DNA of 64,000 nt from Candidatus Hydrogenedentota bacterium (GTDB lineage: Bacteria > UBA8481 > J006). Of this stretch, positions 19,478-61,999 are shown piece by piece (the first letter of the stretch is position 1; each line of letters opens with the position of its first letter). The DNA lies in NCBI GenBank assembly GCA_003697085.1, contig RFFU01000074.1, positions 82,600-146,599 of the forward strand. The letters are read 5' to 3'. Made by a program: the position numbers and the translations under genes. The notes beneath the pieces were generated by a model. The model saw only the letters and a program-made list of their open reading frames with translations, ran no database searches and had not been told where the DNA came from.

Positions 19478-22400
19478 TCAACGGATCACCATCAATTTTT
19501 TGATCATTCGCTCACCCGAGTCTGTTTCGATAACGATGAGATACATTCCGGAGGCAAGGGGCCGGCCGTCGTCGGAGCGGACATCCCAGTGGAGTCGTCC
19601 TTCGGCGGAATTCTTCTCGATACGGCTCACAATTTTTCCCGCGAGGTTGTAAACCGTGATGCGAGCCTGAGAAGTGAGGTTATCGAAGAGGACTCCCGAG
19701 GCGGGATCGGAGGAAGACCACGGGCGTCCGGTTCGATCGTTGTTATCGAAAGGGATATACGGGTTCGGATAAACAACGACATTATCGAGAGAGCCGGCGG
19801 CGTTGGTGGCGGCGAGGACGGCGAAGAGTGTGAAGTGCCGGATGGTCGCCGTCACCGTGTTGTGAACGGGATCGACGATCGAGGAGTTCTCTTTGATCCA
19901 GAGGTTTGAGCCTTCGTCGAAGTGATAGATGGCCAAGGCTGCTTCGAGGATATTCGAATCGCCGACTTGATCGTTCTCCGGATCCGTATCGGGGTACGGC
20001 AATGTCAGAGTCAAGGTTTTTTGAAACGAGCGTGCCCCATCCTCGCGGATCAACTTTCGAACAACCGCTTGAACGGGAACCGAGAGAGAGGTTCCCAAAG
20101 GTGCGGTGTCGGGGATATCAGCGAGAGAGATCATCCGAATCCAAACGGTGTCCGCAACGGCCCCGGAAGGAAGAGAAAGTATCGACGGGCCGAAATTTTC
20201 GACGAGAAGAATCGTTGCGGAGGAATCAGGAAAAATCCTTTGGCGCGTGGCGGGTTCTCCGGCCGTGGTGAGAAATCCATCGACGACGGAATCAGCGTTG
20301 GAGATGGAGACGAGAAGGGGGGCGGGGTTGGTATCGACCGTTCCGAAGAGATCGGTTCCGACGGCGCGCAACTCGTAAAGGCCATCGGGGAGTGAAGAGA
20401 CATCCCAGAGAAAACTCCAGAAGGGTCCCGTGGTGTCAGGATTGCTATTGTCGGGCGAGGAAGCCTTTACCCAGGTTCCATTGATCGGTCGGTATTCGAA
20501 ACGCACTTTGGTGATCGTATCCGAGAAACCTGCGCTGACGGAAACCGCGTTGCCGGAGAGGGAATAGGGAGCGAGGCCGGTTTCGGAGATCGTAACGAGC
20601 GAGGGCGATGTATCGAGCACGGTAACCGTCATCGAAAAAGAGTCGGAGTTTCCTTGCGCGTCGCGGAGGATCACGGAAAGGGAGGAGGTTCCTCCGGAAA
20701 CGGTGGTGTCGGTGACGAAGGTGAGGATCCAGGTCGTATCGGAATTCTTCGCCAGCGGGGTCGAAGCCCCCCCGCCCAGTGGAGTGAGGTCGATCAGAAT
20801 TTCAAAGACGCCGGTGGAATCCGTGGCGGAGACGGAGAAGGAAAGGGTGTTTGTTTCGCTGTTGGAAATGGAATTGGGAGAGACACGGCTGTCGAGGAGC
20901 AGCGGAGGGGTTGTATCGACGGCGGAGACAACGAAGAAACCGAAAACAGCGCTCGTATTGCCCGCGTTGTCTTCCGTGATAATCTCCCAGAACCAGGTAT
21001 CGGGTCGAAGGCGAACGAAGGTATCGGGTTTCAGAAAAACAGTATCAGCGGTCAAGGGGAGAGAGAAGGAGAGTTCGGTATCGATGAGAAGCCTATAATG
21101 TTTCAATCCGGAACCGGAATCGGCGGAAGGCGTCCAATCGAGGAAAGCGGGGGCGACGACGGTGGTCCCGCCCGTGGGGGTGAGAGGTTCAGGGAGCAAC
21201 GGAGGAAGAATGTCGGTTAAGAATCGCGAATCGCCGGCGACCGTCGTATTCCCACTCGCATCCGTTGCAATCACGCGCCAGAAGAATGTGTCGTTTGCAC
21301 CAGCGATCACGGTGACGTTCGTTTCCGCCAAGGTTGTGTCGATGGCGAACGGCGCGAAGAGGTCGGTGTCAACCAAAAGCCGGTAGGAGACGGAGGAGGA
21401 GTCGACCGCCTCGCTCCAGCGAAAGGTTATCTGAAGTTCACGAGTCTCCGCACCGTCGGAGGGAGAAAGGAGCAAGAAGGGACCGGGGGGGGTTGTGTCC
21501 GGCGGAAGCACGACAACGAAGCTTTCCGGCCCCTTTGTGTCGGTGTTGCCGGCCCCGTCGGTTACGATGACTCTCCAGAAATAGGTATCGGCCGCGAGAA
21601 GAAGTGTGGTGTCGGGCAGGGACTGAAAACCATCAAGGAGCGTCGATAATGGAGAAAAGGTGCCGACGGTATCCAATTGGAAGTGGTAAGTGAGGGAGGA
21701 GGAGAAGGAATCCGAGGCGGCGGACCATGTGAAGTCAACCGGGGAGAGCACGGATTCCCCGTTGGCAGGAGATGTGAGGGAGAGACCGGAGGGCGGGAGG
21801 GTATCGATGAGGAAGTACGAATCCCCCGCGGGAGTCGTGTTTCCGTTGATGTCCGTGGCGATCACCCGCCAGAGGTAAGAATCATTGGGGGAGAGTGTGA
21901 TGGTGAGGAACGTATCGGCGACCTTTGAATCGACGGCGTACGGAAACGACATATCGGTGTAGACGAGAACCGAATAGGAGACGGAATTAGAATCGAACGC
22001 ATCCGTCCAGCGAAGCGGGATCGTCGTCGCCGAGGTTTCCGTGCCATTTGTTGGAGCCGTCAGGGTGAAGGAATCGGGAGGGACGAGGTCGGCGGTTCCC
22101 ACGACGACGAAACTTTCCATAGTGGAGGCCGAAGTGTTCCCGGCGTCATCCACTGTAATAATCCTCCAAAACCACGTGTCCAGGGAAAGGGCGACGGTGG
22201 AGTCGACGGAGGTCTGAAAGCCGTCGAGAAAAGGGGCGAAAAAAAGGCCTGTGGTGTCGACCTGGAGTCGGTAGCCGGCAAGACCGGATGGTGTATCCGA
22301 AACCGCCGTCCATTGGAGCGGGACGGGAGAAAGAACAGAGGTACCCGCCGTGGGGGAAAGGAGGAGGGAGGACGGAGGAGGGAGGGTGTCGATGATCAAC

Positions 22401-25400
22401 AGAGAGGTGGTTGTCGTTGTGGTATTTCCGACGTTGTCGGAAACGAGAATTCTCCAGAAGAAGGTGTCGTTGGCGGCGAAGGTGAGGGTTCCCGTGGTAT
22501 TCCTCCCCGTGCTGGAATCATCGAGAAGGGAGAGGAAGGTTCCGGCGGTGTCGGTTTGGATACGATATTCCCCGACTCCCGTCAGAGTGTCACTTACGGC
22601 ATTCCAGGAGAAAACGAGTGAACGGGAGGAAGTTTCGGTCGGGTTGGTGGGGGTGACCACGCCGGGAGCCGGAGGCGGCTCCGTATCAACGATGATTCGG
22701 GAATCTCCGGAGGGCGTGGTGTTCCCGGCGTCATCGGCGGCGATCACCCGCCAATACCAGGTATCCGCCGCGGGGAAGACGAGGATTCCGGTTGTCGAGG
22801 AAGAGGTGGAGGAGTCGATCAGGTCGAGCGTGAAGACCGTGTCCCGGGCGGCCTGAAGCCGGTAGGTTACGACGGAAGAGATACTGTCAGCCGCGGCCGA
22901 CCACGTGAAGGTTATCGACGCGGACCGGGTTTCGAATTGGTCCGCGGGCAGAAGCGGTTTGGGAGCCGTCGGCGGTCCCGTATCGACGGTGAAAGAATCG
23001 AATGGTATCGGCCCCCCTGCGATATTTCCGAGGGAATCCGCCGCTTGAACCCGCCAGTAATAGACACCCTGGGGCAGCGGAGAAGCAAGAAGCGTTTGCG
23101 TGTCGGGAGGAGTGGTCGTTTCGGAAGCGAGAATCGTCGAGAAGGAAGACGAATCGGAAACAAGCAAGAGGTAGAAGGCCGTTCCGATACCGCCGTCCGA
23201 AGCACGGGACCAGGAAAAGGTCGGAGTCCGCGGGGCCAAGGCACCGCCGATCGGCGAGAGAGGAAGGACGGTATCCGGAGGCAAGGTGTCGGCGCGGAGA
23301 AGAATGAGCACGGAGTCGGAAGTTCCGGAGGTGTCATAGGCCGTGGCGACGACGATGGTGTCGGTTTTGTGCCGGAATTTGATGTGAAAGACGGCGGTGA
23401 AGGGCGAGGAAGCATCGGTTTGAAGCGGCGAATCGAAGGCTTGGGAAAAAGTAACCGAATCGGGATTCGGGGAGGTAAAGTCCACGGTGACCGTGAGTGT
23501 TTGTGTTTCGTTGGAGTACCAGACCGTGTCCCTACCGGTTGTTGTATCGAAGGACACCGGGGGGGAGATGCGGAGCGGCGTGTCGGAGGAAACGGTGAGG
23601 CTTGTGATGACCGGCGTCTCGACGACCGTCGCGGTGCTGCTGCTGTCTCCGGTCCATCGGATGTCGTCGAGATAAATGACCGCAGAGGCGGACGGATTGA
23701 CAAAGCGAAAGGATTGGACGAGGTGTCCCCAATCCATCGTCCCGTCCCCCCCGGCTCCGGAATTGATGGTGAAATCGCTTTTTCGGATTTGGAATCGCGT
23801 CCAAGAATCGGCTGTCGTGACGGTGACAATTTTCTCGGCGATATCGCCGGCCCCGAAGGTTCCATCGATCGCGCCGATCGTGAAACTGACCCCCGCGACA
23901 TTGGAACGTGCGAGGAATGTAAAGGTGTCGAAGGGATTCGCGTTCAGTGGGAAATCCTGGTCCTCCATCCAAACAACACCGAACCCTCCCCCCCCTCCGG
24001 ATTTCGTGTAGGTGATCTTCAGAGACATGTCACCCTCGCCGGCGGGGATATCATCGGCGAGCCGATCGATGGAGATGGCGTCCCCTCCGCCCGCCGCATA
24101 AGAAATCGGAGACTGGTGGCCGTCCCCGTAACGATTTCCATAGAGGATGAGGTCCCCGATCGTCAGAACTTCCGTGGGAGCGTTGCTCAATCCGGGTGCG
24201 GAGGCATCGATCGATACGGACTCGAGCTCCGTGTCCCACAGGGTCGTATAGGCGACTCCGCTTTCAAAAATGGGGGTCGACGTCCCAAGATGGACCGAGT
24301 TCGGGGACTGGGTGCCGTGTTCCGTGATGGTGATCGTGACATTTCCGGAATAAGAACGGTCAATTCTATTAGACGCGTCCAAGGCCCAGACTGAGACGAG
24401 GATCGTCTCTCCCGCCGCGGCAAAGTCCCGCGCCATGAGACGAAGATGCGTCGCCGCTGTGAAAACGGCGTAGGAATCACGAAAGGAGGACGTTACCGAA
24501 CGAGGGAAACGATTCGTACCGCTCGCATCAATGCCCACCACCCCGAACCACTCTTCCTGCATCCCATTGTCGGTGTACTGAGTATTCGTCCAGGAAACCG
24601 TATTGTCATGCGTCGAATTGTTTCCGGCTTTCCACCACTCATCGAGAAATTCGAAGGCCGTATGGGCTACAAGAATTCCTCCCGCGGAATCCTCGGCAAG
24701 ATTGGCGAAGATCTCATCGAGTTGCGGGTCGATTTCCGCTTTCTGCATCGCTTGGTCTTCGGAGGCGCTTCCCGTGTTGTAGGCATCGGCGCCGTGTTCC
24801 GAAATCCAAAAGGGCTTCGAAGAAAGCCCCGGATACGTGACCCAAAGCGTCGAGAATCCTCCCCCACGATAAATGTTGCCGCCCCAAATGTCCAGGTTGG
24901 TCATAGAGGCGTCGTCCGAGCCGACCCCCGGATCGCCCAGGTTCGCAATGTCACCGTTCGCGGATGCGACCGGATGAAAGGAATCCTCCGCTTTCAACTC
25001 GCCCGCGGCTTCGTTCAAAAGAGAATACCAACAACTCAAGGGATAACCGTCGTAGTTCTCTTCGTTTCCGAAACTCCAAAAGAGAAGTGCGGGATGCCCC
25101 TTGTGCTGTCGCATCATATTTCGGAGATGTTTCTTGAGAGTGGAGCGTGTCGAAGCATCACAGAAATCGGAACCCGCCGGCGGCAAGTAGTTCATTATGA
25201 CATAAAGTCCGTACGCCGAAGCAGAATCCATTACCAAATCCCGCGTTACGGGATGATAGGTTCGGATAACATCGGCATTGAACGATTTCAGCAACGGGAA
25301 GTCCACGGTATGCGTCCGTGTTCCGTCTTCTTCCCACGCATATCCGCCTCCTTCTCCCACCGGTGTCGAAGAATAGGCGAAACCATGAGCCGTGTAGGGA

Positions 25401-25543
25401 AGACCCTCAACGAGTAATTGGCGGCCGGCCGTGCTGACTTTCGTCGGACCGGCGAGACCGCTCGTTGAGAAAAAAACGGCAAGATTGAAGGAAAGAAGGA
25501 ATCGGAAGAGATGACGACCCCGAAATGCGGTGGATAGAATCAC
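19478..25543 (-). CDS. giant secreted multidomain protein (2021 aa): signal peptide, N-terminal clan GH-A (GH2-type TIM-barrel) glycosidase domain, about 10 tandem FN3/Ig-like ~90-aa repeats, and a C-terminal T9SS (FlgD-Ig-type) sorting domain
   Basis: N-terminal signal peptide. LLFWSFGNEENY (acid/base NE) and WISEHGADAYNTGS (GH2-type nucleophile context). Repeated modules end in TW/FWRVIA.D.AGN.S......F.VDT.PP. The C-terminus VVYPNPYIPFDN...ARITVYNLAGKIVSRI...GMYLIVIETDSGERMIKKLMVIR matches T9SS type-A CTDs. Confidence 0.9.
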   Translation of the reverse strand: MILSTAFRGRHLFRFLLSFNLAVFFSTSGLAGPTKVSTAGRQLLVEGLPYTAHGFAYSSTPVGEGGGYAWEEDGTRTHTVDFPLLKSFNADVIRTYHPVTRDLVMDSASAYGLYVIMNYLPPAGSDFCDASTRSTLKKHLRNMMRQHKGHPALLFWSFGNEENYDGYPLSCWYSLLNEAAGELKAEDSFHPVASANGDIANLGDPGVGSDDASMTNLDIWGGNIYRGGGFSTLWVTYPGLSSKPFWISEHGADAYNTGSASEDQAMQKAEIDPQLDEIFANLAEDSAGGILVAHTAFEFLDEWWKAGNNSTHDNTVSWTNTQYTDNGMQEEWFGVVGIDASGTNRFPRSVTSSFRDSYAVFTAATHLRLMARDFAAAGETILVSVWALDASNRIDRSYSGNVTITITEHGTQSPNSVHLGTSTPIFESGVAYTTLWDTELESVSIDASAPGLSNAPTEVLTIGDLILYGNRYGDGHQSPISYAAGGGDAISIDRLADDIPAGEGDMSLKITYTKSGGGGGFGVVWMEDQDFPLNANPFDTFTFLARSNVAGVSFTIGAIDGTFGAGDIAEKIVTVTTADSWTRFQIRKSDFTINSGAGGDGTMDWGHLVQSFRFVNPSASAVIYLDDIRWTGDSSSTATVVETPVITSLTVSSDTPLRISPPVSFDTTTGRDTVWYSNETQTLTVTVDFTSPNPDSVTFSQAFDSPLQTDASSPFTAVFHIKFRHKTDTIVVATAYDTSGTSDSVLILLRADTLPPDTVLPLSPIGGALAPRTPTFSWSRASDGGIGTAFYLLLVSDSSSFSTILASETTTPPDTQTLLASPLPQGVYYWRVQAADSLGNIAGGPIPFDSFTVDTGPPTAPKPLLPADQFETRSASITFTWSAAADSISSVVTYRLQAARDTVFTLDLIDSSTSSSTTGILVFPAADTWYWRVIAADDAGNTTPSGDSRIIVDTEPPPAPGVVTPTNPTETSSRSLVFSWNAVSDTLTGVGEYRIQTDTAGTFLSLLDDSSTGRNTTGTLTFAANDTFFWRILVSDNVGNTTTTTTSLLIIDTLPPPSSLLLSPTAGTSVLSPVPLQWTAVSDTPSGLAGYRLQVDTTGLFFAPFLDGFQTSVDSTVALSLDTWFWRIITVDDAGNTSASTMESFVVVGTADLVPPDSFTLTAPTNGTETSATTIPLRWTDAFDSNSVSYSVLVYTDMSFPYAVDSKVADTFLTITLSPNDSYLWRVIATDINGNTTPAGDSYFLIDTLPPSGLSLTSPANGESVLSPVDFTWSAASDSFSSSLTYHFQLDTVGTFSPLSTLLDGFQSLPDTTLLLAADTYFWRVIVTDGAGNTDTKGPESFVVVLPPDTTPPGPFLLLSPSDGAETRELQITFRWSEAVDSSSVSYRLLVDTDLFAPFAIDTTLAETNVTVIAGANDTFFWRVIATDASGNTTVAGDSRFLTDILPPLLPEPLTPTGGTTVVAPAFLDWTPSADSGSGLKHYRLLIDTELSFSLPLTADTVFLKPDTFVRLRPDTWFWEIITEDNAGNTSAVFGFFVVSAVDTTPPLLLDSRVSPNSISNSETNTLSFSVSATDSTGVFEILIDLTPLGGGASTPLAKNSDTTWILTFVTDTTVSGGTSSLSVILRDAQGNSDSFSMTVTVLDTSPSLVTISETGLAPYSLSGNAVSVSAGFSDTITKVRFEYRPINGTWVKASSPDNSNPDTTGPFWSFLWDVSSLPDGLYELRAVGTDLFGTVDTNPAPLLVSISNADSVVDGFLTTAGEPATRQRIFPDSSATILLVENFGPSILSLPSGAVADTVWIRMISLADIPDTAPLGTSLSVPVQAVVRKLIREDGARSFQKTLTLTLPYPDTDPENDQVGDSNILEAALAIYHFDEGSNLWIKENSSIVDPVHNTVTATIRHFTLFAVLAATNAAGSLDNVVVYPNPYIPFDNNDRTGRPWSSSDPASGVLFDNLTSQARITVYNLAGKIVSRIEKNSAEGRLHWDVRSDDGRPLASGMYLIVIETDSGERMIKKLMVIR
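21000..23650 (-). repeat. array of about 9-10 FN3-like ~90-aa protein repeats inside the 2021-aa gene (approximate bounds)
   Basis: Recurrent D.W(Y/F)WRV.A.D..GN.S (and similar) blocks with PP-terminated linkers are read in the translation. Confidence 0.6.
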
Positions 25544-40854: not shown

Positions 40855-40924
40855 TCGCCGGAACATAAACGAATACAACTTTCGAGGGGAAAAGGGGGAT
40901 TTTTTGAAAAAAAAGGAGGAAACG

Positions 40925-42004: not shown

Positions 42005-42007
42005 ACC

Positions 42008-44227: not shown

Positions 44228-44789
44228 AAATTGGCCGAGAGTGTGGAATAACCGAACGGTTTATCAGCCTGGAAGGGAGGCGATCGGAGGAGAGAGGGCG
44301 GCGGGGGTCGGAAGCGCGTGTCAGAATACAAGGATAAGCGGAAGAGAGGGCTGTAAATACAGGTGCTTTTTCAATGAGATCGTTTTTCGACGATAAAGCA
44401 AAAGCGGCAGTACGGGCGGCCGGAAGAAAAGAGAAGAAGGAAGGCACGGGGGCGAAGAGGGGGTCGGATTCAGTGTAAGCAGGCTTGAAAATTACGGCTC
44501 TTGTGCGGCAAAGCAAAATAATCTTTACATTAGAACGATTTAAATATTAGATAAAGAATATTTGTGTGGGCAACCGAGAGACGACGGGGTCCCCCCAAGG
44601 CCCCGTATTTTGGGAAGGAACCACTGGGCAAGGAGGGGAAGCGCGGCCGGGCGCTATACGGGGGAGGTTTTGCAAAGCGGATGCGGTTCCGCGCCTCGCG
44701 CGGGTGCCGGCAGAACGTGGGACTGGAAAGGTGTATCTGCGGGACGGTCTGTAAAGCGGCTGGCGTCGATTGATGAAAAGGAGGATGGG

Positions 44790-46253: not shown

Positions 46254-46268
46254 GGAGGATTGAAAGGA

Positions 46269-48438: not shown

Positions 48439-51400
48439 ATGATGTTAATCTTTTTATTTAAGATGGTGAAAAAGAGAAAAAGAGCAACACCTGCTTTTAT
48501 AAGTACCTGGTGTTGGCCGTGCGCCCTGGTGTCCTTTCTTCTCGGAAACTTGATTTTTGGTGTCGCGCCTCCGGCTCGTGCCGCGATAGAAGTCTTCAAT
48601 ATTACGCCGACGATTGTGAAGGCGGGAAGCGGGGCGCCGATAATTATTTCGGGGCAGAATTTTTCCTCGACAACGCCGGTGAAAATCGGTGACAAACCTG
48701 TGTCCCCGGTGGTGTATCTCAATTCGCATACGCTCAAGGTCTCGGTACCGACCTCGCTTGACTCAGGTGTCTATTCGATTACGGTGGGTTCGGGGGCGGA
48801 TTCCGCGACGCTCGTGAATCCGCGGCTCCACGTGCTTTCTTTCGCGGCGGAGGTGGCCTATATCGCCGGAGGGAACGACACCCTGGCTGTCGTCAACCTT
48901 GATGACGGCTCGATCATTACGACCGTGTCGATGCCGGGAATCCTTGGAGGTTCCAACCAGCTTCCTGTTGGAATGGCGGCCGCCCCGGACGGAAACAAGA
49001 TTTTTATCGCCTCCTTTGATGGGGCGTTTCCCAGAAAAATTTACGTGTTTTCGACCGTTTCGAATACTATTGTGGATGAGATTTCCGTCAGTGATCCGGT
49101 TCGGATCCGTATGTTTCCGGGGGGAGAAACATTGGCGGTCATCAGTAATGATCCACCGAATAATGTTCACTTCTTTCGGTTGTCGGATACGACGGAAGTG
49201 TACAGTGGCGGGAGCGTCAGCTGGAACGGCACCGATCTGGCGATGCATCCATCCGGAAAGTACTTTTATGCCATCTATTCAAGTGGAAGCTATATTTCTG
49301 TCATTGATGCCAGGGATGGAACGACGGTGGACAGCATCTCTGTTACTTACAGTGGTGTCGGACCGCATTTCTTGACGATCTCGCCGACGGGGGATTCTCT
49401 GTATGTCAGTTTTTCGGAACAGAATGCGTTCGCGGCGGTGGGGCTAACCGACACGGGGATGATTCGAGGAGACACCGCGGTGATTCCGAAGGCGACGGGG
49501 GTGATGAACAATGCCGTGATGGTAATGAATCTGGATGGAACAAAGCTCTTTTATGGCGGGAATCGGGTTGCGTCGTATGGGGTTACGAATCTAAAGACGG
49601 GAGTCGCGTCGACGATTACAGGAACTTGGAATAATACGAATGGATCTGCAAGGAGTTCCGATGGTCAATACATCTGGGCGACGAATTATTCGACGGAAAC
49701 ATTGAACAAGATTCGAATTTCGGATGATGTCGAGGAAAGTACGATAGACATCACGTCGGCAGGGGGGATCGGAGGGATGGGAATTCTTACGCTGCCGCGA
49801 GTGATTCCGATGAACGATTCGATGATACCGTATATTCAATCGGTATCGCTTTATGTTCCCGTAGGCGGCGAAGTGACGATCAACGGTTTTTTTGACAGTG
49901 CGTCACACTATGGTTTCACCTCCACGGATACGGTTTGGATTGGAGGAATTCCGGTGGAGACAATGACGGTTCTCGGCCAAACTCTGATCAAGGCGACGTT
50001 ACCGTCGTCGATCCCCGCTGATACAGTGGTGGATGTTCTGGTCAAGAATGTCGTTTCGGGCATGACGTCCGATTCTCTTGGGTTTCAACCTCAGGATACG
50101 GTGACGGTGACCGGGCCGGCGCCGACGATTACGGCGATCGTTCCTGACAGCGGTTATTCTGGGGCCGTTACGCCGGTGACCATCACGGGGACCAACTTTG
50201 ATCCGGTGTTGACAAAAGCCTATATTGAAGGAACGGAACTGGCGAACGTAACCTATGTGTCACCAACGCAACTTACAGCGGAGATTCCCAATGGACAAAG
50301 TCCAGGAGTGCACAACATCAGTGTGGCGAACTATCCGGTAAATGAACAGTGGGATACGCTGTGGAACGCCTTTACGGTCAATCAGACACAGATGGAAATT
50401 TCCGGAGCGCTTCCAAGAAATCCCGTGCTCAAAGGCGACTCCTTTTGGATGTGGATCTACGGTTCAGGTTTCGACACGTCCATGGTTCCGACGGTTACAC
50501 TCGGAGGGGTCGCGCTGAGTCGAGTCAAAGTCCCAAATACCAAGGTGATCACGGCTTTTTATGACGGTGTAACGCCGCTGGCTACGGGATGGAACAACGT
50601 GACCGTGAGTTATGGGGCGTTTCCAGATAGTCAGGCGCAGTTGGTTAATGCTGTCGAGGTTTTCGACAGCGGCGCACAGTACATTTATCTGCTTCCTTAC
50701 CTCGATGCTTCCTCCGATTCCCTGTATGTTGTCGATGTCGCCAAGAATGAAGTTGTCGACACCATAGAAGTAGGAAATGTCGGCTTTGATGGAGCGTTGG
50801 ACATTTCTCCGGACGGAGAATATTTGTTGGTTACGGCGTCCGATGGAAAGACCTTGAAGGTCGTTCGCTTGTCGGACAATACAATTGTTTCAACGAAAAC
50901 GTTTTCACAAGTTGTCACGTGCGGGGTCTTTTCGCAGGATGGTTCGGCTGTTTACGTAGGGTACGCTCCTGTTTCGGCTTCCGCCGCGATCAATAAATAT
51001 TCCTTTCCTGGTTTCTCCCTCTTGAAATCCTATCCGACGTCGGGGTCGGTTCTGGACTTTGTGGCAATCTCCCCGTTGGAAGATTATGCTGCTTATGGTC
51101 GGAAATGGGATCCCACGATGAAACTGATGGATTTATCCACGGGAGCCGAGACGATACTGGCGGGAACATATGTCAACGGTTCGGACCGGGATATTTATTT
51201 TTCTCCGGACGGATCGAAACTCTATGTTACCAGTGTTAACGGGGGAGCGACGACGGATTCGCTCGTCGTCGTCGATGTGGCGACAAACACCGTCCTTTAT
51301 GATACGCTTCTTCCTGTGTTGACGGGGGGACAGAACGGCGCCTACAGCCTCGTGTTTCATCCATCAGGCGACACCTACTTTGTGTCCTCTTTCGGCGGCT

Positions 51401-54400
51401 TTATAGCCTTCGATGCAGCGACAAACAGGTTGCTGGATTCCGCCGCCCTCGGTTCACAATCAGGTGGGATCGATATTCTTCCGGACGGAACACGCGTCTA
51501 CCAAGGGGTATCATCGTGGTCCGGATGGGATGGTTGGATTTACGCACCGGTGACCTATCCGGGGGGAAATGTTTCCTTGGGGACCCCCGTTCACACGGGA
51601 ATCCCGGGTGATATTCGTGTTATCCCCAGGGGGGTGAAATATGTCTTTCGCGGCTTGGTACCGCCGCATCTTACGATTGCTTCTCCGGACAGTGGAATAG
51701 AAAATGAAACGCAGACGATTACGTTATACGGAAGCGATTTTTCTCCTACACCGACAGTATATTTCGGGGGAGTGGTCTCTTCTTCCGTTACCTATGTAAG
51801 CTCGACGGAGTTGACGGTCGTAGCCCCCGCATTAACGGCAGGTACCTATGCTATTCGCATTGTCAATCCGGATCTGGGTGAAAGTACGAAAGACAGCGCG
51901 TACACTGTTTATCCCGCTGCGGCTTTCGTTCCGGACACGGCCTTTGGCAGTTTTTACAAGGATCCTTCCCTAAGGGATTCCGTAAGCCTCTTCGTGCCGG
52001 GTGATACGGTGTATTTTCAAGTGGGGGATACGAACCCCAATACGAATGCGGCGCGGCAGGAAACGTTGACGGTGGTGATCATCACGGCAGAAGGGGACAG
52101 CGCATCCCTCCTACTCTATGAGGATGGGGTCTCTTCGGAGACGTTTACCAGCGAAACCACACCTCTCTTTATCACGGACGATGCGGGGATCGGGGTGAAC
52201 GGGACGGACACCTACCTTTACGCAGTGTCTGGGGACACATTTTTTGTTATTTACTCGGATCCCCAGGACACCTCGGATACCTTCTTCTTGGTCGCGATGG
52301 TTCTTTCAGGGGCATCGGTCGGCGTTGTTTCTCTTGACAACGGTCAATACAGCCTCGATTCAACCGTAACGGCCACGGTAATCGACACCGACCAGAACAA
52401 GAACGCGGTACTGGCGGAGACGGTGACAGTTCGGTTGGTGTCGGAGGTCGGAAACGACACGGAATGGCTTATTTTGACGGAGACAGGGAACAACACCAAT
52501 GTTTTTGACAACAGTGGTGCTCCGGTTGCGCTTTCGGATACGACGGGGGCCGATTCGGGTTACGACGGAATTTTGAGGGTCGGGGGGGCGGACACGATCC
52601 ACCTTTTTTACGCGGATCAGTCCGGTAATATTGAAACTTCGGCGGTGACTGTCCCGCGGCAAACCGCTTCTTCGGTCGCATTTGCTTTATCGGAGTACCG
52701 TATTGACTCTTCCGTCACGGTTACGGTGACGGACCCGGACGAGAATCTGAATCCGACGGTAAAGGATCAAGTCCTGGTTTTCTTAACGGAGTTATCGACA
52801 GGTGATACGGAAACGGTGACGTTGACGGAGACGATGGACACGTCGGGAGTCTTTGTCTCGGTGGCAGGTGTCTTTCTTTCTGACACCTACGGGGCGGATT
52901 CGGGCCAGGACGGCGTTCTTCTCTGTGGAGATGCCGATTCGATTCAGGTTCTGTACTGGGATCGAAATTTTTCGGCTGCGGCAGACACGGCGGTGGATAC
53001 GACGAGTGTCTTTTTCAACTCCGGAGCGGGGACCGTGACGTTCATGGCTGTTAATGAGGAACTGGCTATAGGAAGCGAATCCATCGTTATTGTTGTATAT
53101 GATAGAGATGGGAACAAAAATCCGCGCCTCCAGGACAGTGTCTATGTTGAAGTAACCGTTGACGGGACAGCACGGGACACCGAACACCTTGTTCTTTACG
53201 AAACGGGAGATACGACGGCGACGTTTTCGGATTCGGTGGTCGGCTTGGTGTCGCCGCTGAAATCCCAAGAAAACGAAACAGGGACAGCCGACAACGGAAT
53301 CGTCGAGTGGTTGGTTGGAGATATTTTGCGTGTCACATATAGAGATTCCGACGGCGTCAGCCCAGCGGTTCAAGATACGGTTACAGGGGTTTCGTCGGCC
53401 TCGATCGGAAGTTTTTTTGGGATCAAGCTCGTGTACGAACTGGACTCCGCGGTCCTGATCGGTCTCTCGGATACGGATCAAAATCGGAATCTTTCCGCAT
53501 CCGAGACTGTCGAAGTTGTCGTCTTCGATGAGTCGTCGAATGATACCGAGATCGTTGTCCTGACAGAACGTGGAGTAGATTCCTGGTTGTTTGATAACAG
53601 CGGATCGTTGTTGAAATTATCAGACACCTCCGGCGGCGTAGTAGAGAATGATGGAATTCTTTTGGTAGGTGTGGGTGACACGATCCATTTCCGTTACCAG
53701 GATCAATCAGGTTTAATCGATACAACGACGACGACATTATCCCGGCAGACGCTTGCTTCGGTGTCCTTTTCGGTTTCGGAGTATCGAATTGATTCACGAG
53801 TGGTGGGAATAACCGTTTCGGATGCGGACGAGAATTTGTCCCCGCGCCGGAAAGATGTTGTAAAAGTTCTCCTGCGCAGCAATCTTTCCGGCGATACGGA
53901 ATATGTGCTTTTGGAAGAGACGACGGAGACGTCGGGTGTCTTTGTCGACACTGCCGGAGGCGTTCGTCTTTCCGACACGACGGGAAGGCTCTCTCCGTGG
54001 GACGGCGTGATTCTGGCGGGAGCGCCGGACAGCATCACCGTTACTTACGTTGATGAAAACAATGACGCCCTCGCGGACAGTGCCGTCGATAGTGTGACGG
54101 TTCTTTTTTATCCTGGTGCTGCGTCTGTAATCATTGATTCTTCCAACGGAGTCATTCAGACAGGTGCGGAATCTCTGGTGATTTTCGTCTTCGACAGGGA
54201 TCAAAATGCCGATCCGACGGTTCGGGACACGGTATTTGTTCTGGTGACGTTGGATACGCGTTATGCGGACACGGAATATCTTATTCTTCGCGAGACAGCA
54301 GAGACCTCCGGGATTTTCTCGGATTCCATTGCAGGGATCGTTAGGGCTCTGAGCACTGAGAATAATGCTGTTGGAACAGTAAACGACGGCGTTCTGCAGA

Positions 54401-57400
54401 CGATTCTTTTTGATACGATTGTAGTAATTTACAGCGATTCCGATGGAGTCAGTAGCGCTGCTTTTGCAACGATTCGGACGGTAGAACCGATTGTGGCCTC
54501 CCCGTCGTCGATCTCTTTTGGGCTTTCCGCCTATGCTTTGGATTCGTCCCTGACGGTGATTTTGATCGACACCGACCAAAACAGAACGCCGTTTGCTGTG
54601 GAAACCTCAGCAGTGGTTCTCATGGATACCGAAACAAACGATTCGCTTGTGTTGTACCTTACGGAAGCTAATGCCAATAATTCAACTTTCGCTGGAGGTG
54701 CCGTTGATCTTTCCGATACGCTTTCCGGCAGCGGCCGTTTGTTGGTGGGAATGCTCGATCAGGTGATCGTTCAGTATGACGACGGGGACGCGCCGGGCGC
54801 GGGTACAGACTCTTCAACGGCCGTAATGACGATTCTCTTTACAGCTTCAAACGGGGCACTGAACCTTGCAGCGGATACGGTTACACCGGGAGGTACGGGT
54901 CTTTTGGTGACGGTTGAAGATCGTGACAGAAATATGGATCCTGTTTCTCCTGATACGTTAGAGGTGACGTTGAGGACGGTCATACCTGCTCCGGACACAG
55001 AAGTTCTCATCCTAACAGAGACGACGGATACATCGGGGATGTTTACCGGGACGCAATACGTGTCGGATACCACGGGGGCAGGCGTTGGAGACGGGATCTT
55101 GTTAGGACGGGTCGGGGAAACAATCTGGATTCTGTATAGTGATACGAGAGAAGGGCAAACGGATAGCGCCGAGGCAACGGTTCTTATAGAACCTGTCGAG
55201 GAAAGTTCACGGACAGCATTTGATACGGCGGTTTATCTTCAAGATTCGTTCGCCACGGTATTCGTTACCGATGCGGACCAAGACATAGATCCATTTTCTC
55301 CTGACACCGTATTGATTACCTTGAGCAACGGAGTTTTAGGCGCGGAAACGGAAATAGTTGTTTTGACGGAGACAACGGATTCAAGCGGGATCTTTTCGGG
55401 AACGGCGGTTATTTCGTCGAATGTTCTCGATTCCGTTGCCGGAAACGGAAGGCTTTTTGCGGGAGTCGGGGATTCGATTGTGGCGTTTTATACTGATCCG
55501 ACGCGACAGAGTGATACATCGGTGGATACGGCCCTTGTGTTAGCCGTTCCAAGTGTTTCAACGGTGATTCTGGACGATTTGGGGTATGCTTGGGATTCCG
55601 CAGTGACCGTAACAGTGGTGGATACGGATCAGAATCGGAATCGTAATCTTCAAGAAACAGTGACCGTAATCGTATCCGACACAGAAACGAATGATAGTGT
55701 TGTTATTGTGTTGACCGAGTCGGGAGTTAACAGTTCGCTTTTCACGTCGTCGGCTTTGCGGCTTTCGGACACGGCGGGGGGGGAGAGCACGCTTTTGGCC
55801 GGGGCGGGAGATTTATTTAGTGTTGAGTATGAAGACAGGGATTTCCCCGGGATCGGAAATGATACTTCTTTTGGAATAGCCACGGTGCTTTTTATCCCGT
55901 CGTCCGGCACTTTGTCGCTTGCTTCAGACACTGTATCTCCGGGGGCGACCGTTGTGGTGACCGTTGCGGATGCTGATGAAAACATGGATCCTTTGGTCCG
56001 CGATACTCTTGAGGTCATTCTCGTAACCACTGTTCCGGGGGATGATACGGAAATCTTAGAATTGACTGAGACGACGGAGACCTCCGGGATCTTTGCCAAC
56101 GGAAACGGCCAGTGGGTGTCGGATACGACGGGAGCAGGGGTTGGGGACGGTATTCTCCTCGGGCGTATCGGATCGCAAATCCGGGTCGTGTATTCGGATA
56201 CGAGGAACGGCCAGAATGATCGTTCGGAAACAACGGTAACGATTGAAGTAGTGCGAAGTTCGGCGGTCCTGACGTTCGATTTGAGTAAATATACCCCGGA
56301 TACTCCCGTTCGGATCACTGTGACCGATTTCGATCAGAATTTGAATTCTTTTGCAACGGAAACGGTATTTGTGATTCTTGAAAATTTGAACGTGGCGTCG
56401 GAAACGGAAATTTATGAATTGAGAGAAACAACGGAATCGAGCGGAATCTTCCTTGGGACCGCCTCCCTTTCCGATACACCAACGGATTCGGGAGTTTATG
56501 GGGACGGCGTTTTGTATGCGGAACCGGGTCATTTGATTCGAGCGATGTATCAGGATTCCGTCGCGGCGAGCGATACGGCAGCGGAAACGGCCGCAGTGGT
56601 GTCACGGGTTCCCCCTACGGCCAGCACGATCCAGCTTGATAGTACCGACTATCGATTGACAGAGCGTTTTACGATAACGGTTACGGATCCGGATGAGAAT
56701 CAAAAAGGATGGGTTGTGGATCAGGTGACGGTGAGGGTGGTATCAAATGGACCTTTGGCGGATACGGAGACGTTTACTTTGACGGAACAGAGCCCCAATG
56801 CCGGGATATTTGTTTCGAATCCGATAGACCTTTCTGATACCAATACGACTGAGGGGGATGGTATCCTTGGAATAACGGTCGGGGCAACACTGACGGCGTC
56901 CTATGTTGATAAGGATGACGCGACGGATTCGGCCAGTGTTCAGGCCACAGCTGTAGCGGTGTTGACACATTCCATTTCAGAATTTGTGGATCAGGGGGGA
57001 GTCGCGAGATCATCCTTCATAATGGGAACGGACACGATTCAAATCCGGGTTGTCGATGCCAACCAGAATAAAAACTCCTTGGCGATCGAGACGATCAATC
57101 TCGGACCTGTTTTTACTTCCGCCTCCGGTGATGCAAATTCCGTGACGCTCACCGAAAGTGATTCCGCCAGTGGAATATTCTTATCGCAGGAATTTTCGAT
57201 GGATACGGGGGCCAATGCTGATAACGCCGTTGTGAGTGTCGACACCTCTTTGGAGCAGATCACATTTGTGTATACGGATCCTGATGATCCGGCCGATACT
57301 TCCATGATTTCGGCGCAGGTGGTGTTCGCTATCCCGCCGATAGCCGCTTTGAAGTTTGAAGCCGTTCCGGGAAATGGAGGGACCACGGTGATCAACATCT

Positions 57401-58419
57401 ATCCTTTGACTTCGGCTGGTGATACTTCTGTGAGTTATGATGGAGCGCAGGTGCTGGCGACGCAGAAAAATTTTGGGACGGCAACAGGAGGCCTGCTGGA
57501 TACGGGAGGTTTCATCTCAAATGGGAAGGTTGCAGTAGGGTATGACAAGATTGAAAATGCGCGCCTCTATCTCGCGATCACGATACAAGGAACGCTTTTT
57601 AATGGCGTCGTGAATCTTTCGGATCGACCGAATGGAAAGGTTGATTTTGTATCTCAAATGGAAACGGGGGGCGTATTCTTGGTTTTGAACGTGGACTCGC
57701 GCATTACAAGCGGGGTCGATTCCTTTTCCATCGTTGGAAATTCCGGGTTCAATGACTCGCAGTTAATATATATTCAAACGGGAGATACGCTTTTGGAGCA
57801 GATCCCGGGCCGGGTCTTACTGCGAAAGGTATCGGGTGGGGAAGTCCTTCCGGAATTTTCCGTATTGGCGATAAGAGATTCTGGAATTCAGATTCATGAA
57901 TTCTCAGATACCCCCTTGGTTGTTCGCATCTACTATCCGGATGCCGACAACGACGGATACGTCGATACCACGGCAGGAAAGGTTTTGGAAAAGAGTCTGC
58001 TGATGTACTCTATGGAGGAATCGGAGACGGGGGCTCGGCGTTGGACGCGCGTTGAAGGAGCGCGAGTGAATGCAGAGGAAAATTTCGTCGAGGCGACAGT
58101 ATATCATTTGACACTCTTTACTCTTGTAGGAGGAACGGCGACGAAGTCGCTGTCTTCATTCATCGTATATCCGAATCCGTTTCGTCCGAAATTGGGGCAC
58201 AAGAGTGTTATCTTCGATAATCTTCCTTCGGGGGCGACGGTGCAGATTTATACGATTTCCGGTGATTTGGTCGACGAAAAGGTGGTCCCTGCGGGGAGTA
58301 ATCGTTTGCAATGGGACGGACGCAACGCCTTCGGCCGACTCGTTGTTAGTGGGGTTTATATCTATCGGATCTCCACAACGAGTGAGAGTAAAGTAGGAAA
58401 GTTATTCGTGATTCGGTGA
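48439..58419 (+). CDS. giant secreted adhesin-like protein (3326 aa): signal peptide, IPT/TIG domains, YVTN-type beta-propeller repeats, about 15 tandem ~110-aa DxDxNxN repeats, a conserved pre-CTD module, and a T9SS (FlgD-Ig-type) C-terminal sorting domain
   Basis: The ORF is continuous. N-terminal signal and TM-like segment. IPT-like IEVFNITPTIVKAGSGAPIIISGQNFS and ITAIVPDSGYSGAVTPVTITGTNFD. YVTN-like repeats (AVVNLDDGSIITTV..., IYVFSTVSNTIVDEISV). The C-terminus IVYPNPFRPKLGHKSVIFDNLPSGATVQIYTISGDLV...GVYIYRISTTSESKVGKLFVIR matches T9SS type-A CTDs. Confidence 0.92.
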   Translation: MMLIFLFKMVKKRKRATPAFISTWCWPCALVSFLLGNLIFGVAPPARAAIEVFNITPTIVKAGSGAPIIISGQNFSSTTPVKIGDKPVSPVVYLNSHTLKVSVPTSLDSGVYSITVGSGADSATLVNPRLHVLSFAAEVAYIAGGNDTLAVVNLDDGSIITTVSMPGILGGSNQLPVGMAAAPDGNKIFIASFDGAFPRKIYVFSTVSNTIVDEISVSDPVRIRMFPGGETLAVISNDPPNNVHFFRLSDTTEVYSGGSVSWNGTDLAMHPSGKYFYAIYSSGSYISVIDARDGTTVDSISVTYSGVGPHFLTISPTGDSLYVSFSEQNAFAAVGLTDTGMIRGDTAVIPKATGVMNNAVMVMNLDGTKLFYGGNRVASYGVTNLKTGVASTITGTWNNTNGSARSSDGQYIWATNYSTETLNKIRISDDVEESTIDITSAGGIGGMGILTLPRVIPMNDSMIPYIQSVSLYVPVGGEVTINGFFDSASHYGFTSTDTVWIGGIPVETMTVLGQTLIKATLPSSIPADTVVDVLVKNVVSGMTSDSLGFQPQDTVTVTGPAPTITAIVPDSGYSGAVTPVTITGTNFDPVLTKAYIEGTELANVTYVSPTQLTAEIPNGQSPGVHNISVANYPVNEQWDTLWNAFTVNQTQMEISGALPRNPVLKGDSFWMWIYGSGFDTSMVPTVTLGGVALSRVKVPNTKVITAFYDGVTPLATGWNNVTVSYGAFPDSQAQLVNAVEVFDSGAQYIYLLPYLDASSDSLYVVDVAKNEVVDTIEVGNVGFDGALDISPDGEYLLVTASDGKTLKVVRLSDNTIVSTKTFSQVVTCGVFSQDGSAVYVGYAPVSASAAINKYSFPGFSLLKSYPTSGSVLDFVAISPLEDYAAYGRKWDPTMKLMDLSTGAETILAGTYVNGSDRDIYFSPDGSKLYVTSVNGGATTDSLVVVDVATNTVLYDTLLPVLTGGQNGAYSLVFHPSGDTYFVSSFGGFIAFDAATNRLLDSAALGSQSGGIDILPDGTRVYQGVSSWSGWDGWIYAPVTYPGGNVSLGTPVHTGIPGDIRVIPRGVKYVFRGLVPPHLTIASPDSGIENETQTITLYGSDFSPTPTVYFGGVVSSSVTYVSSTELTVVAPALTAGTYAIRIVNPDLGESTKDSAYTVYPAAAFVPDTAFGSFYKDPSLRDSVSLFVPGDTVYFQVGDTNPNTNAARQETLTVVIITAEGDSASLLLYEDGVSSETFTSETTPLFITDDAGIGVNGTDTYLYAVSGDTFFVIYSDPQDTSDTFFLVAMVLSGASVGVVSLDNGQYSLDSTVTATVIDTDQNKNAVLAETVTVRLVSEVGNDTEWLILTETGNNTNVFDNSGAPVALSDTTGADSGYDGILRVGGADTIHLFYADQSGNIETSAVTVPRQTASSVAFALSEYRIDSSVTVTVTDPDENLNPTVKDQVLVFLTELSTGDTETVTLTETMDTSGVFVSVAGVFLSDTYGADSGQDGVLLCGDADSIQVLYWDRNFSAAADTAVDTTSVFFNSGAGTVTFMAVNEELAIGSESIVIVVYDRDGNKNPRLQDSVYVEVTVDGTARDTEHLVLYETGDTTATFSDSVVGLVSPLKSQENETGTADNGIVEWLVGDILRVTYRDSDGVSPAVQDTVTGVSSASIGSFFGIKLVYELDSAVLIGLSDTDQNRNLSASETVEVVVFDESSNDTEIVVLTERGVDSWLFDNSGSLLKLSDTSGGVVENDGILLVGVGDTIHFRYQDQSGLIDTTTTTLSRQTLASVSFSVSEYRIDSRVVGITVSDADENLSPRRKDVVKVLLRSNLSGDTEYVLLEETTETSGVFVDTAGGVRLSDTTGRLSPWDGVILAGAPDSITVTYVDENNDALADSAVDSVTVLFYPGAASVIIDSSNGVIQTGAESLVIFVFDRDQNADPTVRDTVFVLVTLDTRYADTEYLILRETAETSGIFSDSIAGIVRALSTENNAVGTVNDGVLQTILFDTIVVIYSDSDGVSSAAFATIRTVEPIVASPSSISFGLSAYALDSSLTVILIDTDQNRTPFAVETSAVVLMDTETNDSLVLYLTEANANNSTFAGGAVDLSDTLSGSGRLLVGMLDQVIVQYDDGDAPGAGTDSSTAVMTILFTASNGALNLAADTVTPGGTGLLVTVEDRDRNMDPVSPDTLEVTLRTVIPAPDTEVLILTETTDTSGMFTGTQYVSDTTGAGVGDGILLGRVGETIWILYSDTREGQTDSAEATVLIEPVEESSRTAFDTAVYLQDSFATVFVTDADQDIDPFSPDTVLITLSNGVLGAETEIVVLTETTDSSGIFSGTAVISSNVLDSVAGNGRLFAGVGDSIVAFYTDPTRQSDTSVDTALVLAVPSVSTVILDDLGYAWDSAVTVTVVDTDQNRNRNLQETVTVIVSDTETNDSVVIVLTESGVNSSLFTSSALRLSDTAGGESTLLAGAGDLFSVEYEDRDFPGIGNDTSFGIATVLFIPSSGTLSLASDTVSPGATVVVTVADADENMDPLVRDTLEVILVTTVPGDDTEILELTETTETSGIFANGNGQWVSDTTGAGVGDGILLGRIGSQIRVVYSDTRNGQNDRSETTVTIEVVRSSAVLTFDLSKYTPDTPVRITVTDFDQNLNSFATETVFVILENLNVASETEIYELRETTESSGIFLGTASLSDTPTDSGVYGDGVLYAEPGHLIRAMYQDSVAASDTAAETAAVVSRVPPTASTIQLDSTDYRLTERFTITVTDPDENQKGWVVDQVTVRVVSNGPLADTETFTLTEQSPNAGIFVSNPIDLSDTNTTEGDGILGITVGATLTASYVDKDDATDSASVQATAVAVLTHSISEFVDQGGVARSSFIMGTDTIQIRVVDANQNKNSLAIETINLGPVFTSASGDANSVTLTESDSASGIFLSQEFSMDTGANADNAVVSVDTSLEQITFVYTDPDDPADTSMISAQVVFAIPPIAALKFEAVPGNGGTTVINIYPLTSAGDTSVSYDGAQVLATQKNFGTATGGLLDTGGFISNGKVAVGYDKIENARLYLAITIQGTLFNGVVNLSDRPNGKVDFVSQMETGGVFLVLNVDSRITSGVDSFSIVGNSGFNDSQLIYIQTGDTLLEQIPGRVLLRKVSGGEVLPEFSVLAIRDSGIQIHEFSDTPLVVRIYYPDADNDGYVDTTAGKVLEKSLLMYSMEESETGARRWTRVEGARVNAEENFVEATVYHLTLFTLVGGTATKSLSSFIVYPNPFRPKLGHKSVIFDNLPSGATVQIYTISGDLVDEKVVPAGSNRLQWDGRNAFGRLVVSGVYIYRISTTSESKVGKLFVIR
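51970..57300 (+). repeat. array of about 15 tandem ~110-aa protein repeats (approximate bounds) with the signature [VI]x[DT]xDxNxN...DTExxxLTETxxxSGxF...LSDTxG...DG[IV]L...GDxIxxxYxD
   Basis: The repeat units are read directly in the translation (e.g. IDSSVTVTVTDPDENLNPTVKDQVLVFLTELSTGDTETVTLTETMDTSGVFVSVAGVFLSDTYGADSGQDGVLLCGDADSIQVLYWD). Units are divergent at the DNA level. Confidence 0.7.
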
Positions 58420-59588
58420 TGGAGAACATGGCAACAAGAAACAAACGGATGCTGCTTTCGGCGTTATTATTCCTTTTGATGTTAATATCAGCGACGGGAG
58501 GAGCCGGCCCGGCGAAGGCCTTGACCCCCGATCCTCTGGCAGGGACATCCGGGGTTCAGTTTTTGAATTTCGGGCGCGGCCCGCAGATTATCGCGCTGGG
58601 AGAGAGCTACAATGCGCGTGTATTAGGAGCGGCCGGAATATTTGGGAATCCCGCGTCGATTAGTTTTGCTCAAGACGCTGAAATGATGTTCAGTTTTAAC
58701 CGAATGATAGCGGACATAAATCACAGTCTCTTTTCTTATGTCTCGCCGAATATGATCCATGATCGCTATTCTTTCGCCCTGGGCGCAATTTATACATCGT
58801 TCGGTCGTATTACTGCTCGGGATGCAACAGGGTTCGAACTGGGAAGGAAGCAAGCGTATTCGGCAGCGGTGTTGGCGACAATCTCCGCGAAGTATAATGA
58901 ACATTTTTCGGCGGCCGTTACGTTCAAGGGGATTGGAGAGAGGATCGCGGATGTATACGGGACGGGAATCGCTTTTGACGGAGGCATATATTTCCGGAAC
59001 GTGTTGATTCCGAATCTCGATTTCGGTGCATCGGTGCAAAACATCGGACCTGGTTTGACATTCGACAAAGAAAGCACGCCGTTAACACTGATTTACGGCG
59101 GGGGCTTTTCCTACCGGCCGCCGCGGATCCCGTTGCGCATTTCTCTGGATTTTCAAAAACCTCGCGATGAGAAAACCTCCGCCATGCTGGGGGCGGAGTG
59201 GGACGTGAGGAATCTTCTTTACCTTCGTGGTGGGTGGCGGGAGCGTAGTGGCGCGCGAAGCCATTTTTCGGCCGGAATGGGAATCAGGGTCAATAACGTG
59301 GTTCTGGATTATTCGTATGTCAGGTCGGAGTTTTTAGGCAATACACACAGCATTGCGCTCCGGTATGAGTTTTGGCCGAAGAAGCATTCAGGGGAATCCA
59401 AAAGATACCGTACGGTGGAAAAGGCGGGAAAATATGTGACCGTTGAAGAATCGCCTGGTTCGAGAAGTAATAACTCCGAAAAAACGGAAAAGTCGGTTTC
59501 GAAAAAGGAATCGACCGGAAATGAAAAAACGTCGGCACCGACGCCGCAAAAAACTCCCAGCGAGGGCGAGGATCTATTGGAATTCTGA
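58416..59588 (+). CDS. outer-membrane beta-barrel protein translationally coupled to the giant T9SS cargo gene (PorP/SprF- or PorV-like position); Lys/Glu/Ser-rich C-terminal tail
   Basis: The ATG at 58419 overlaps the upstream TGA stop (TGATG). N-terminal signal peptide LLSALLFLLMLISATGGAGPAKA. Alternating amphipathic beta-strand pattern. The barrel ends in the aromatic-terminal strand HSIALRYEF, followed by a ~70-aa low-complexity tail. Confidence 0.65.
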   Translation: MMENMATRNKRMLLSALLFLLMLISATGGAGPAKALTPDPLAGTSGVQFLNFGRGPQIIALGESYNARVLGAAGIFGNPASISFAQDAEMMFSFNRMIADINHSLFSYVSPNMIHDRYSFALGAIYTSFGRITARDATGFELGRKQAYSAAVLATISAKYNEHFSAAVTFKGIGERIADVYGTGIAFDGGIYFRNVLIPNLDFGASVQNIGPGLTFDKESTPLTLIYGGGFSYRPPRIPLRISLDFQKPRDEKTSAMLGAEWDVRNLLYLRGGWRERSGARSHFSAGMGIRVNNVVLDYSYVRSEFLGNTHSIALRYEFWPKKHSGESKRYRTVEKAGKYVTVEESPGSRSNNSEKTEKSVSKKESTGNEKTSAPTPQKTPSEGEDLLEF

Positions 59589-59592: not shown

Positions 59593-59621
59593 CGGCTGAT
59601 TAAAACATTTGAAATCAGCCG
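59593..59621 (+). terminator. hairpin downstream of the cargo/OMP gene pair (cggctgat-N13-atcagccg)
   Basis: 8-bp perfect stem seen directly, 5 nt after the stop at 59588. There is no canonical U-tract, so it is weak as an intrinsic terminator. Confidence 0.25.
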
Positions 59622-61939: not shown

Positions 61940-61999
61940 GGGGCCGCATGGAGGAAGGCGTACAATAAAAACAAGAAGCGAAAGGAGGAAGGGAGAAAA

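Follow-up and report, generated by a model that had tools for sequence, protein, structure and literature searches.

In a 64-kb stretch of DNA from a Candidatus Hydrogenedentota bacterium (contig RFFU01000074.1, positions 82,600 to 146,599; hereafter the window), a gene for a giant protein of 3326 amino acids (aa), which ends in the C-terminal domain (CTD) of type IX secretion system (T9SS) cargo, is directly followed by a gene for an outer-membrane beta-barrel of the PorV/PorQ family, with overlapping stop and start codons. The reading that we favour, and hold to be reasonably probable, is that the barrel is a partner dedicated to this one cargo, acting through the giant's CTD either as its anchor or as its private shuttle, two roles that are both suggested by analogy with known barrels. 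The locus comprises the following features.

48439..58419, + strand: giant cargo gene, 3326 aa (domain scans).
58165..58416, + strand: type A T9SS CTD, giant residues 3243–3326, with VYPNPF and the end GKLFVIR (TIGR04183).
58416..58421, + strand: junction GTGATG, where the stop TGA of the giant overlaps the candidate starts GTG and ATG of the barrel gene.
58419..58520, + strand: putative signal peptide of the barrel protein, residues 1–34, probable cleavage after AKA (by eye; model helix at residues 4–26).
58539..58679, + strand: conserved N-terminal segment, residues 41–87, with the motifs AGTSG..FL..G and GNP(A) (alignment columns).
58680..59372, + strand: predicted 14-stranded transmembrane beta-barrel, residues 88–318, last strand HSIALRYEF (AlphaFold2, Foldseek, NF033709).
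59373..59585, + strand: Lys/Ser/Glu-rich tail of 71 aa, residues 319–389, end EDLLEF (composition, model confidence).
59593..59621, + strand: perfect 9-bp hairpin without a U tract, a few bases past the barrel stop (fold energy).

The barrel gene is the open reading frame (ORF) 58416/58419..59588 (+), as given by the ORF list and the raw sequence. Its product passes the NCBIfam PorV/PorQ family model NF033709 with 136.1 bits against a cut-off of 90 (E 2e-39), in a match that spans residues 43–318 and covers the full model, and a profile of 21 homologues matches the PorV sequence of the Flavobacterium johnsoniae translocon (6h3i_F) at E 7e-35. An AlphaFold2 model, computed from the alignment behind this profile, has a mean per-residue confidence (pLDDT) of 80 and contains 14 strands between residues 88 and 317, with most 10-residue blocks of the barrel above 90 (range 82–97). 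The top Foldseek matches of this model in the PDB are PorV chains, 8gl6_F (E 5.9e-15) and 6h3i_F (E 9.6e-14), both from SprA–PorV complexes and the former with a bound RemA CTD; TM-scores of PorV chains against the model are 0.60–0.67. FadL, TodX and CymD come next at E ~1e-8 (TM-score 0.5–0.56 for FadL and TodX), and BamG stands far lower in the list (E 9e-6). Short helices are modelled at residues 46–51, 55–59, 70–74 and 78–83, and the conserved segment of residues 41–87 would form an N-terminal plug, positioned as in FadL and PorV. The last strand closes at F318, aligned with the C-terminal aromatic residue of most family members of ~300 aa, and the N-terminus, MENMATRNKRMLLSALLFLLMLISATGGAGPAKA/LTP, resembles a Sec signal peptide when judged by eye. 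An earlier note on this DNA, made from the letters alone, had proposed an outer-membrane barrel with a signal peptide and a C-terminal aromatic strand (ALRYEF), leaving its family open between PorP/SprF, PorV/PorQ-like and other; the signal peptide seen in the translation, the predicted 14-stranded barrel with PorV chains as best matches and the last strand ending at F318 bear out the proposal, and the family model together with Foldseek assigns the protein to PorV/PorQ. By sequence match and predicted fold, it is a divergent PorV/PorQ-family outer-membrane barrel of the FadL fold.

A Pfam scan of the barrel protein at E ≤ 10 returned zero families, PF11751 (PorP/SprF), PF03349 and PF19572 (PorV) included; the miss of PF19572 is a sensitivity limit, because the closest relative (locus L010) does match that family. 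An NCBIfam scan at the same threshold listed five families, with no TIGR03519 (PorP/SprF), FadL or BamG model among them. Membership of PorP/SprF, which the earlier note had considered, is therefore ruled out by the lack of a PF11751 or TIGR03519 match; that of FadL/TodX is ruled out by the lack of a PF03349 match and a fold likeness weaker than that to PorV, leaving likeness at the level of fold only; and that of BamG by the lack of a BamG model in the NCBIfam scan. The protein is not PorV in the strict sense either, as it reaches 59 bits on the PorV ortholog model NF033710 (cut-off 250) and the gene upstream is not porU, nor is it a PorQ ortholog, with 89.7 bits (E 2e-25) on NF033711 against a cut-off of 220.

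The giant ORF (48439..58419, +; 3326 codons, stop TGA at 58417–58419) encodes a protein with a signal-peptide-like N-terminus, TIG/IPT domains, a beta-propeller and choice-of-anchor Z repeats, scoring 109 bits with Pfam TIG and 76 bits with NF058597 (cut-off 30). It reaches 194 bits on the anammox S-layer glycoprotein model NF052345, so far below the cut-off of 1400 that it shares only repeats with that protein. At its extreme C-terminus, residues 3243–3323 of 3326, the whole giant passes the T9SS CTD model TIGR04183 with 27.6 bits against a cut-off of 23 (35.8 bits for the last 130 aa alone), in agreement with the earlier claim that it is T9SS cargo. Two further models, PorZ with 55 bits and PorU with 36 bits, match this tail through their CTD parts; on the whole giant, the PorU model matches in its CTD part only, with 28 bits against a cut-off of 420, and the score with Pfam PF18962 (20.5) stays under the threshold of that model (27). 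The type B CTD model (TIGR04131/CHU_C) had no match in the giant's tail. Going by these model matches, the giant protein carries a type A T9SS CTD.

The overlap of stop and start codons reported earlier is seen in the raw sequence at GTGATG, where GTG 58416 and ATG 58419 share one frame; the two genes overlap by 4 nt if translation of the barrel starts at GTG and by 1 nt if it starts at ATG, and another in-frame ATG lies at 58428. In an independent Logan assembly (run SRR7905022), gene calls give identical 3326-aa and 389-aa products, with the latter starting at ATG 58419. A site search found no promoter-like site immediately 5' of the junction. Such an overlap would favour about equimolar synthesis of the giant and the barrel, and the hairpin past the barrel stop (−13.8 kcal/mol, z-score −3.65, with 0 of 200 shuffles folding equally well) may mark the end of the two-gene unit. 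A 4-nt overlap between cargo and barrel genes recurs in relatives (loci L001, L003, L008, L010, L012 and L014).

The pairing of a CTD gene with a PorV-like gene is conserved well beyond the window. A genome scan with the single window protein as query returned zero relatives, and the relatives' loci came from a scan of species-representative genomes with a five-sequence alignment. Across 85 loci, a CTD was found on 47 of 78 genes directly upstream of the PorV-like gene, on 11 of 80 directly downstream and on 19 of 612 other genes (upstream versus other genes, odds ratio 47, Fisher p 2e-36), as counted on crude gene calls with a CTD profile built from the same loci. Checked independently against curated models, 44 of the 65 C-terminal tails from upstream genes match TIGR04183 and 4 match the type B model. 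Spacing is at most 60 nt in 39 of the 47 pairs, 11 of which overlap; for three homologues (P0009, P0018 and P0015), the barrel gene overlaps by 4 nt the end of an upstream gene, whose product of 2305, 1654 or 1674 aa, respectively, has a FlgD_ig/CTD-type tail. Passenger domains of the cargo form many clusters unrelated to one another, which leaves the CTD as the constant element of the pair, and the 3326-aa cargo of the window is the largest in the sample. Several genomes have at least two loci, and two loci (L023 and L040) each hold two pairs, which fits dedicated paralogues and not one housekeeping PorV. The earlier note had suggested a check for such co-occurrence with CTD proteins within the genome; in the window the barrel occurs with two CTD proteins, and across related loci the family occurs with them as well.

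Paired CTDs match the PorZ CTD model more commonly (40 PorZ-model matches beside 44 to TIGR04183) than unpaired CTDs of the same loci (12 beside 24); against a PorZ-type CTD as the mark of pairing stands the window's second CTD giant, which is unpaired and also matches the PorZ model. This 2021-aa protein (19478..25543, −) has a CTD that closely resembles the first, with VYPNPY, a KLMVIR ending and 43 bits on the PorZ model. The gene after it encodes an HD-GYP-like response regulator (17997–19253, −), and the family hidden Markov model (HMM), run against those window ORFs of 100 aa or more that a crude gene call retained, found no second PorV-like ORF, which upholds the earlier statement that the other giant has no such partner.

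Some loci show variations on the pair. In 10 of them (for example L078 1579–8951, L035 2143–9002 and L036 2168–8939), the second gene upstream of the barrel encodes a SusC-like TonB-dependent receptor, so that receptor, CTD protein and PorV-like barrel follow one another in that order. This arrangement recalls a polysaccharide-utilisation locus with a CTD protein, and not a lipoprotein, as the surface partner. One locus (L007 886–4987) has the reversed order, with the barrel upstream of a cargo that has a CHU_C (type B CTD) match. Additionally, cyclic-nucleotide signalling genes directly adjoin CTD cargo or cargo–barrel pairs: besides the HD-GYP-like gene next to the second giant of the window, in L010 (9146–11802), the barrel gene is followed by a response regulator and a GGDEF cyclase, size-matched ORFs occupy the same positions in L012 (4462–7116), and in L001 (11933–13324) a sCache-HAMP-guanylate cyclase gene comes after the barrel gene.

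The idea of a barrel dedicated to the giant as its anchor is suggested by known systems, in which PorU is held by PorV, PorZ by PorQ and type B cargo by barrels of the PorP/SprF family. PorU–PorV and PorZ–PorQ are 1:1 anchoring subcomplexes in which the CTDs of PorU and PorZ stay uncleaved (PMC5562754), and in a review of 2023 cognate PorV-like barrels are proposed to protect uncleaved CTDs and to retain them (PMC10202324). In the window, both the giant and the barrel would be exported by Sec, as their visible signal peptides suggest, and the beta-barrel assembly machinery (BAM) would insert the barrel into the outer membrane. The type A CTD, itself found in the giant, would direct the giant across the outer membrane through an assumed translocon. 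Extracellular loops of the dedicated barrel could then, by analogy, bind the giant's CTD, and the barrel would either keep the giant permanently on the cell surface or pass it on as a private shuttle.

Several observations weigh against this reading. The loci are phylogenetically non-independent, labels of metagenome-assembled genomes (MAGs) are unreliable, gene calls are crude, and the sequences under study also served to build the CTD profile. The unpaired giant of the window has a very similar CTD, so the CTD alone cannot explain why one cargo should have a private barrel. Also, 13 Poribacteria loci have the barrel in a syntenic context without a CTD gene, which shows that not all family members are cargo-linked.

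A barrel that is the organism's general PorV, the single shuttle for all type A CTD cargo with its position incidental or a matter of co-expression only, is an unlikely alternative in our judgement. It would accord with family membership, with PorV chains as best structural matches and with the presence of one such gene in 64 kb despite two giants with similar CTDs. The score on the PorV ortholog model (59 bits against 250) speaks against it, as does the upstream gene, which is not porU and which the PorU model matches in the CTD part only (28 against 420 bits). Moreover, relatives are multi-copy per genome, each after a different CTD gene, and overlap with one cargo gene would be unexpected for a general shuttle, given that in Porphyromonas gingivalis no single partner comes near PorV in abundance (PMC5562754).

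Equally doubtful to us is a self-contained module for surface display that consists of the CTD protein and the barrel and works without the canonical T9SS translocon and motor. Pairs in phyla without a reported T9SS would thereby be accounted for: the source is a member of the Hydrogenedentota, related pairs come from MAGs labelled Elusimicrobia and Poribacteria and from other phyla outside the Fibrobacteres–Chlorobi–Bacteroidetes (FCB) group, and reviews describe T9SS genes as confined to Bacteroidota and perhaps other FCB phyla and absent beyond (PMC11285876, PMC4793230). Our literature searches found no work linking T9SS or PorV to Hydrogenedentota, Poribacteria or Elusimicrobia. Similarly, no T9SS core family appeared in the neighbourhoods of the 85 loci, by a method that detects the most frequent families only, and no T9SS core model matched beyond the CTD part among the scanned proteins of the 64-kb window, which together with a 31-kb Logan contig is the DNA of this genome that was examined. 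A plugged 14-stranded barrel is, however, an unlikely channel for a protein of ~350 kDa; T9SS core genes are normally scattered over the genome, so that their absence from a neighbourhood says little; and the surveys in which T9SS distribution was published either are old or draw on cultured genomes. A broader proposal, which we likewise regard as improbable, is that the CTD protein and PorV/PorQ-type barrel are an old, widespread module, present in phyla beyond the FCB group (Hydrogenedentota, Elusimicrobiota and Poribacteria) and, in at least some of these, working without a canonical T9SS translocon and motor, with PorU–PorV and PorZ–PorQ as its specialised descendants.

Finally, it is very improbable that the barrel has nothing to do with the gene next to it and is a FadL-type channel for hydrophobic substrates or a BamG-like barrel associated with BAM, since FadL and TodX are only the next-best structures, with BamG behind them, the scans at E ≤ 10 gave no Pfam Toluene_X/FadL match and no NCBIfam BamG model, the PorV/PorQ family model is passed, and so strong a statistical link to CTD genes would be unexpected for a lipid channel.

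Against this background, a barrel dedicated to the giant can be compared with the systems that it most resembles. With PorV (LptO; P. gingivalis and F. johnsoniae; 6H3I and 8GL6, chain F), it shares the family by HMM, the 14-stranded FadL-type fold and the N-terminal plug, as far as the model goes. PorV of known systems binds type A CTDs, and the window barrel adjoins a gene with a type A CTD; porU also lies directly upstream of porV, which is the same order of CTD gene then barrel gene. PorV tethers its CTD protein PorU 1:1 (PMC5562754). Unlike PorV, the window barrel fails the ortholog model (it is ~21–22% identical to PorV in structural alignment), is coupled to an adhesin- or S-layer-like giant and not to a sortase, has a 71-aa tail that is probably disordered, and comes from Hydrogenedentota, not Bacteroidota.

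PorQ, the PorZ anchor of the P. gingivalis attachment complex, belongs to the same family, and its model outscores the PorV model on the window barrel. PorQ serves one CTD protein, whose CTD stays uncleaved (PMC5562754, PMC10202324), and the PorZ model, in its CTD part, matches the CTD of the giant. The window score nevertheless lies under the cut-off for PorQ (220), the giant matches PorZ in the CTD only and so is a different partner, and the window's unpaired giant has a PorZ-type CTD match too. As in PorP/SprF systems such as sprB–sprF, the barrel gene adjoins the cargo gene. PorP/SprF proteins are cargo-specific barrels needed for cargo secretion or surface anchoring, and a review calls them PorV-like (PMC10202324). 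They are of a different family and their cargo CTD is of type B, not type A; of the analogy with sprB–sprF drawn in the earlier note, gene position and probable role therefore hold, while family and type of cargo CTD do not. BamG of the Bacteroidota BAM complex is a FadL-fold 14-stranded barrel as well, described as a platform for surface-exposed proteins (PMC12578637), but its sequence model has no match in the window barrel, and it binds lipoproteins and BamA, not CTD proteins.

The family itself is known already, and current annotation pipelines would name the barrel a "PorV/PorQ family protein". In the literature searched, we found no case in which a cargo gene with a type A CTD has a PorV/PorQ-type barrel gene of its own coupled to it, no account of the frequency of cargo–barrel pairing across many uncultured phyla, non-FCB phyla included, no recurrent periplasmic extensions on cargo-linked barrels, and no instance from Hydrogenedentota like the present one, in which the cargo has 3326 aa and the barrel a tail that is probably disordered. 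In current T9SS models, type A cargo shares one shuttle, PorV, and gene-linked private barrels (PorP/SprF) serve type B cargo; the window locus and about 60% of the relatives sampled, from many uncultured phyla, depart from this scheme, in that a type A cargo gene is immediately followed by its own barrel gene of the PorV/PorQ type. Should such barrels act as private anchors, the retention of very large surface proteins on cells without lipid or lipopolysaccharide (LPS) linkage would be accounted for, a simple genomic rule would predict which CTD proteins remain cell-bound, and T9SS-type surface display would extend to phyla such as Hydrogenedentota, in which it has not been described.

The tail of the window barrel, residues 319–389, consists to 46% of K, S and E (11 each), and its pLDDT is mostly 43–51, apart from a small hairpin at 329–344, so that the model points to a segment that is probably disordered. 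The same two products in the independent Logan assembly indicate that this odd tail is not an assembly error of one record, and a frameshift origin is ruled out by that assembly together with the alternative frames across the region, which encode neither a TPR nor anything else. The earlier note had called the tail unusual: this stands for its low-complexity composition and not for the extension as such, which is recurrent in the family. Most relatives end at the last barrel strand, and C-terminal extensions recur as TPR, OmpA-like and SH3 domains. The six closest relatives have a helical TPR-like tail of a length equal to that of the window protein, the P0009 barrel has a long TPR region, and other relatives carry OmpA-like peptidoglycan-binding or SH3 domains.

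Both ends of a 14-stranded barrel are periplasmic, and since the domains added in relatives are of periplasmic types, the tail is most probably periplasmic as well. It may be a degenerate or disordered version of the same-length extension of the relatives and, more speculatively and by analogy with them, may connect the anchor with the cell wall or with a partner in the periplasm. Extended barrels occur in 7 of 8 pairs with a cargo of at least 1400 aa and in 18% of the rest, a post-hoc split that gives a hint only; cargo length and barrel length show no significant correlation (Spearman 0.11, p 0.44). The tail terminus, EDLLEF (59568–59585), places an aromatic end residue after an already complete barrel. 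In the closest relatives, the TPR-like tails end in RLLLEE followed by R or Y, and Calditrichaeota-labelled members of ~410 aa (P0004 and P0011) have an extra C-terminal domain of ~100 aa.

The identical protein is on record as "hypothetical protein" D6679_07945 from a Candidatus Hydrogenedentota MAG, and the next-best database protein is 33% identical to the window barrel. The family profile finds 47,301 cluster representatives (50% identity clusters) at E ≤ 1e-3 and 9,660 at E ≤ 1e-30. All 84 of 84 relatives match the family model and 0 of 84 reach the ortholog cut-off of PorV or PorQ; of this very large family, the canonical PorV and PorQ may make up a small fraction. Named relatives are from Calditrichaeota and Elusimicrobia, and those of the genome scan from MAGs labelled Poribacteria, Elusimicrobia, WOR-3, Zixibacteria, KSB1, FCPU426, Chitinophagales, Ignavibacteria and "Clostridia", the last being the doubtful label of the closest relatives. 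In the Poribacteria loci without a CTD gene (L015–L021, L024–L027 and L029; about 13), a glutamine amidotransferase and MiaB are encoded downstream of the barrel, and in 4 of them a 147-aa VapC-like gene lies upstream. The barrel of this conserved CTD-free context may be a housekeeping member of the family.

Elsewhere in the window, an 810-aa ORF (15949–18381, −) and a 402-aa ORF (42300–43508, +) have no Pfam or NCBIfam match; the former overlaps the response-regulator ORF by ~385 nt, which makes its true start uncertain. The genes around the cargo–barrel pair (40832–47930 and 59693–62644) are those of sugar utilisation, among them DUF2961, a fucose-isomerase-like gene, a ribulokinase, a GH31 alpha-glucosidase and a GDSL esterase, and given these surroundings the giant protein may bind polysaccharide. 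Further upstream lie an ATP-binding cassette (ABC) sugar transporter and a LacI-type regulator. Two very long ORFs, 35868–38531 (+) and 38536–40854 (+), encode proteins of 887 and 772 aa that end in UgpA- and UgpE-type ABC sugar permease domains; with an additional short match of the 887-aa product to MalE/UgpB-type binding proteins, the two may be binding protein/permease fusions.

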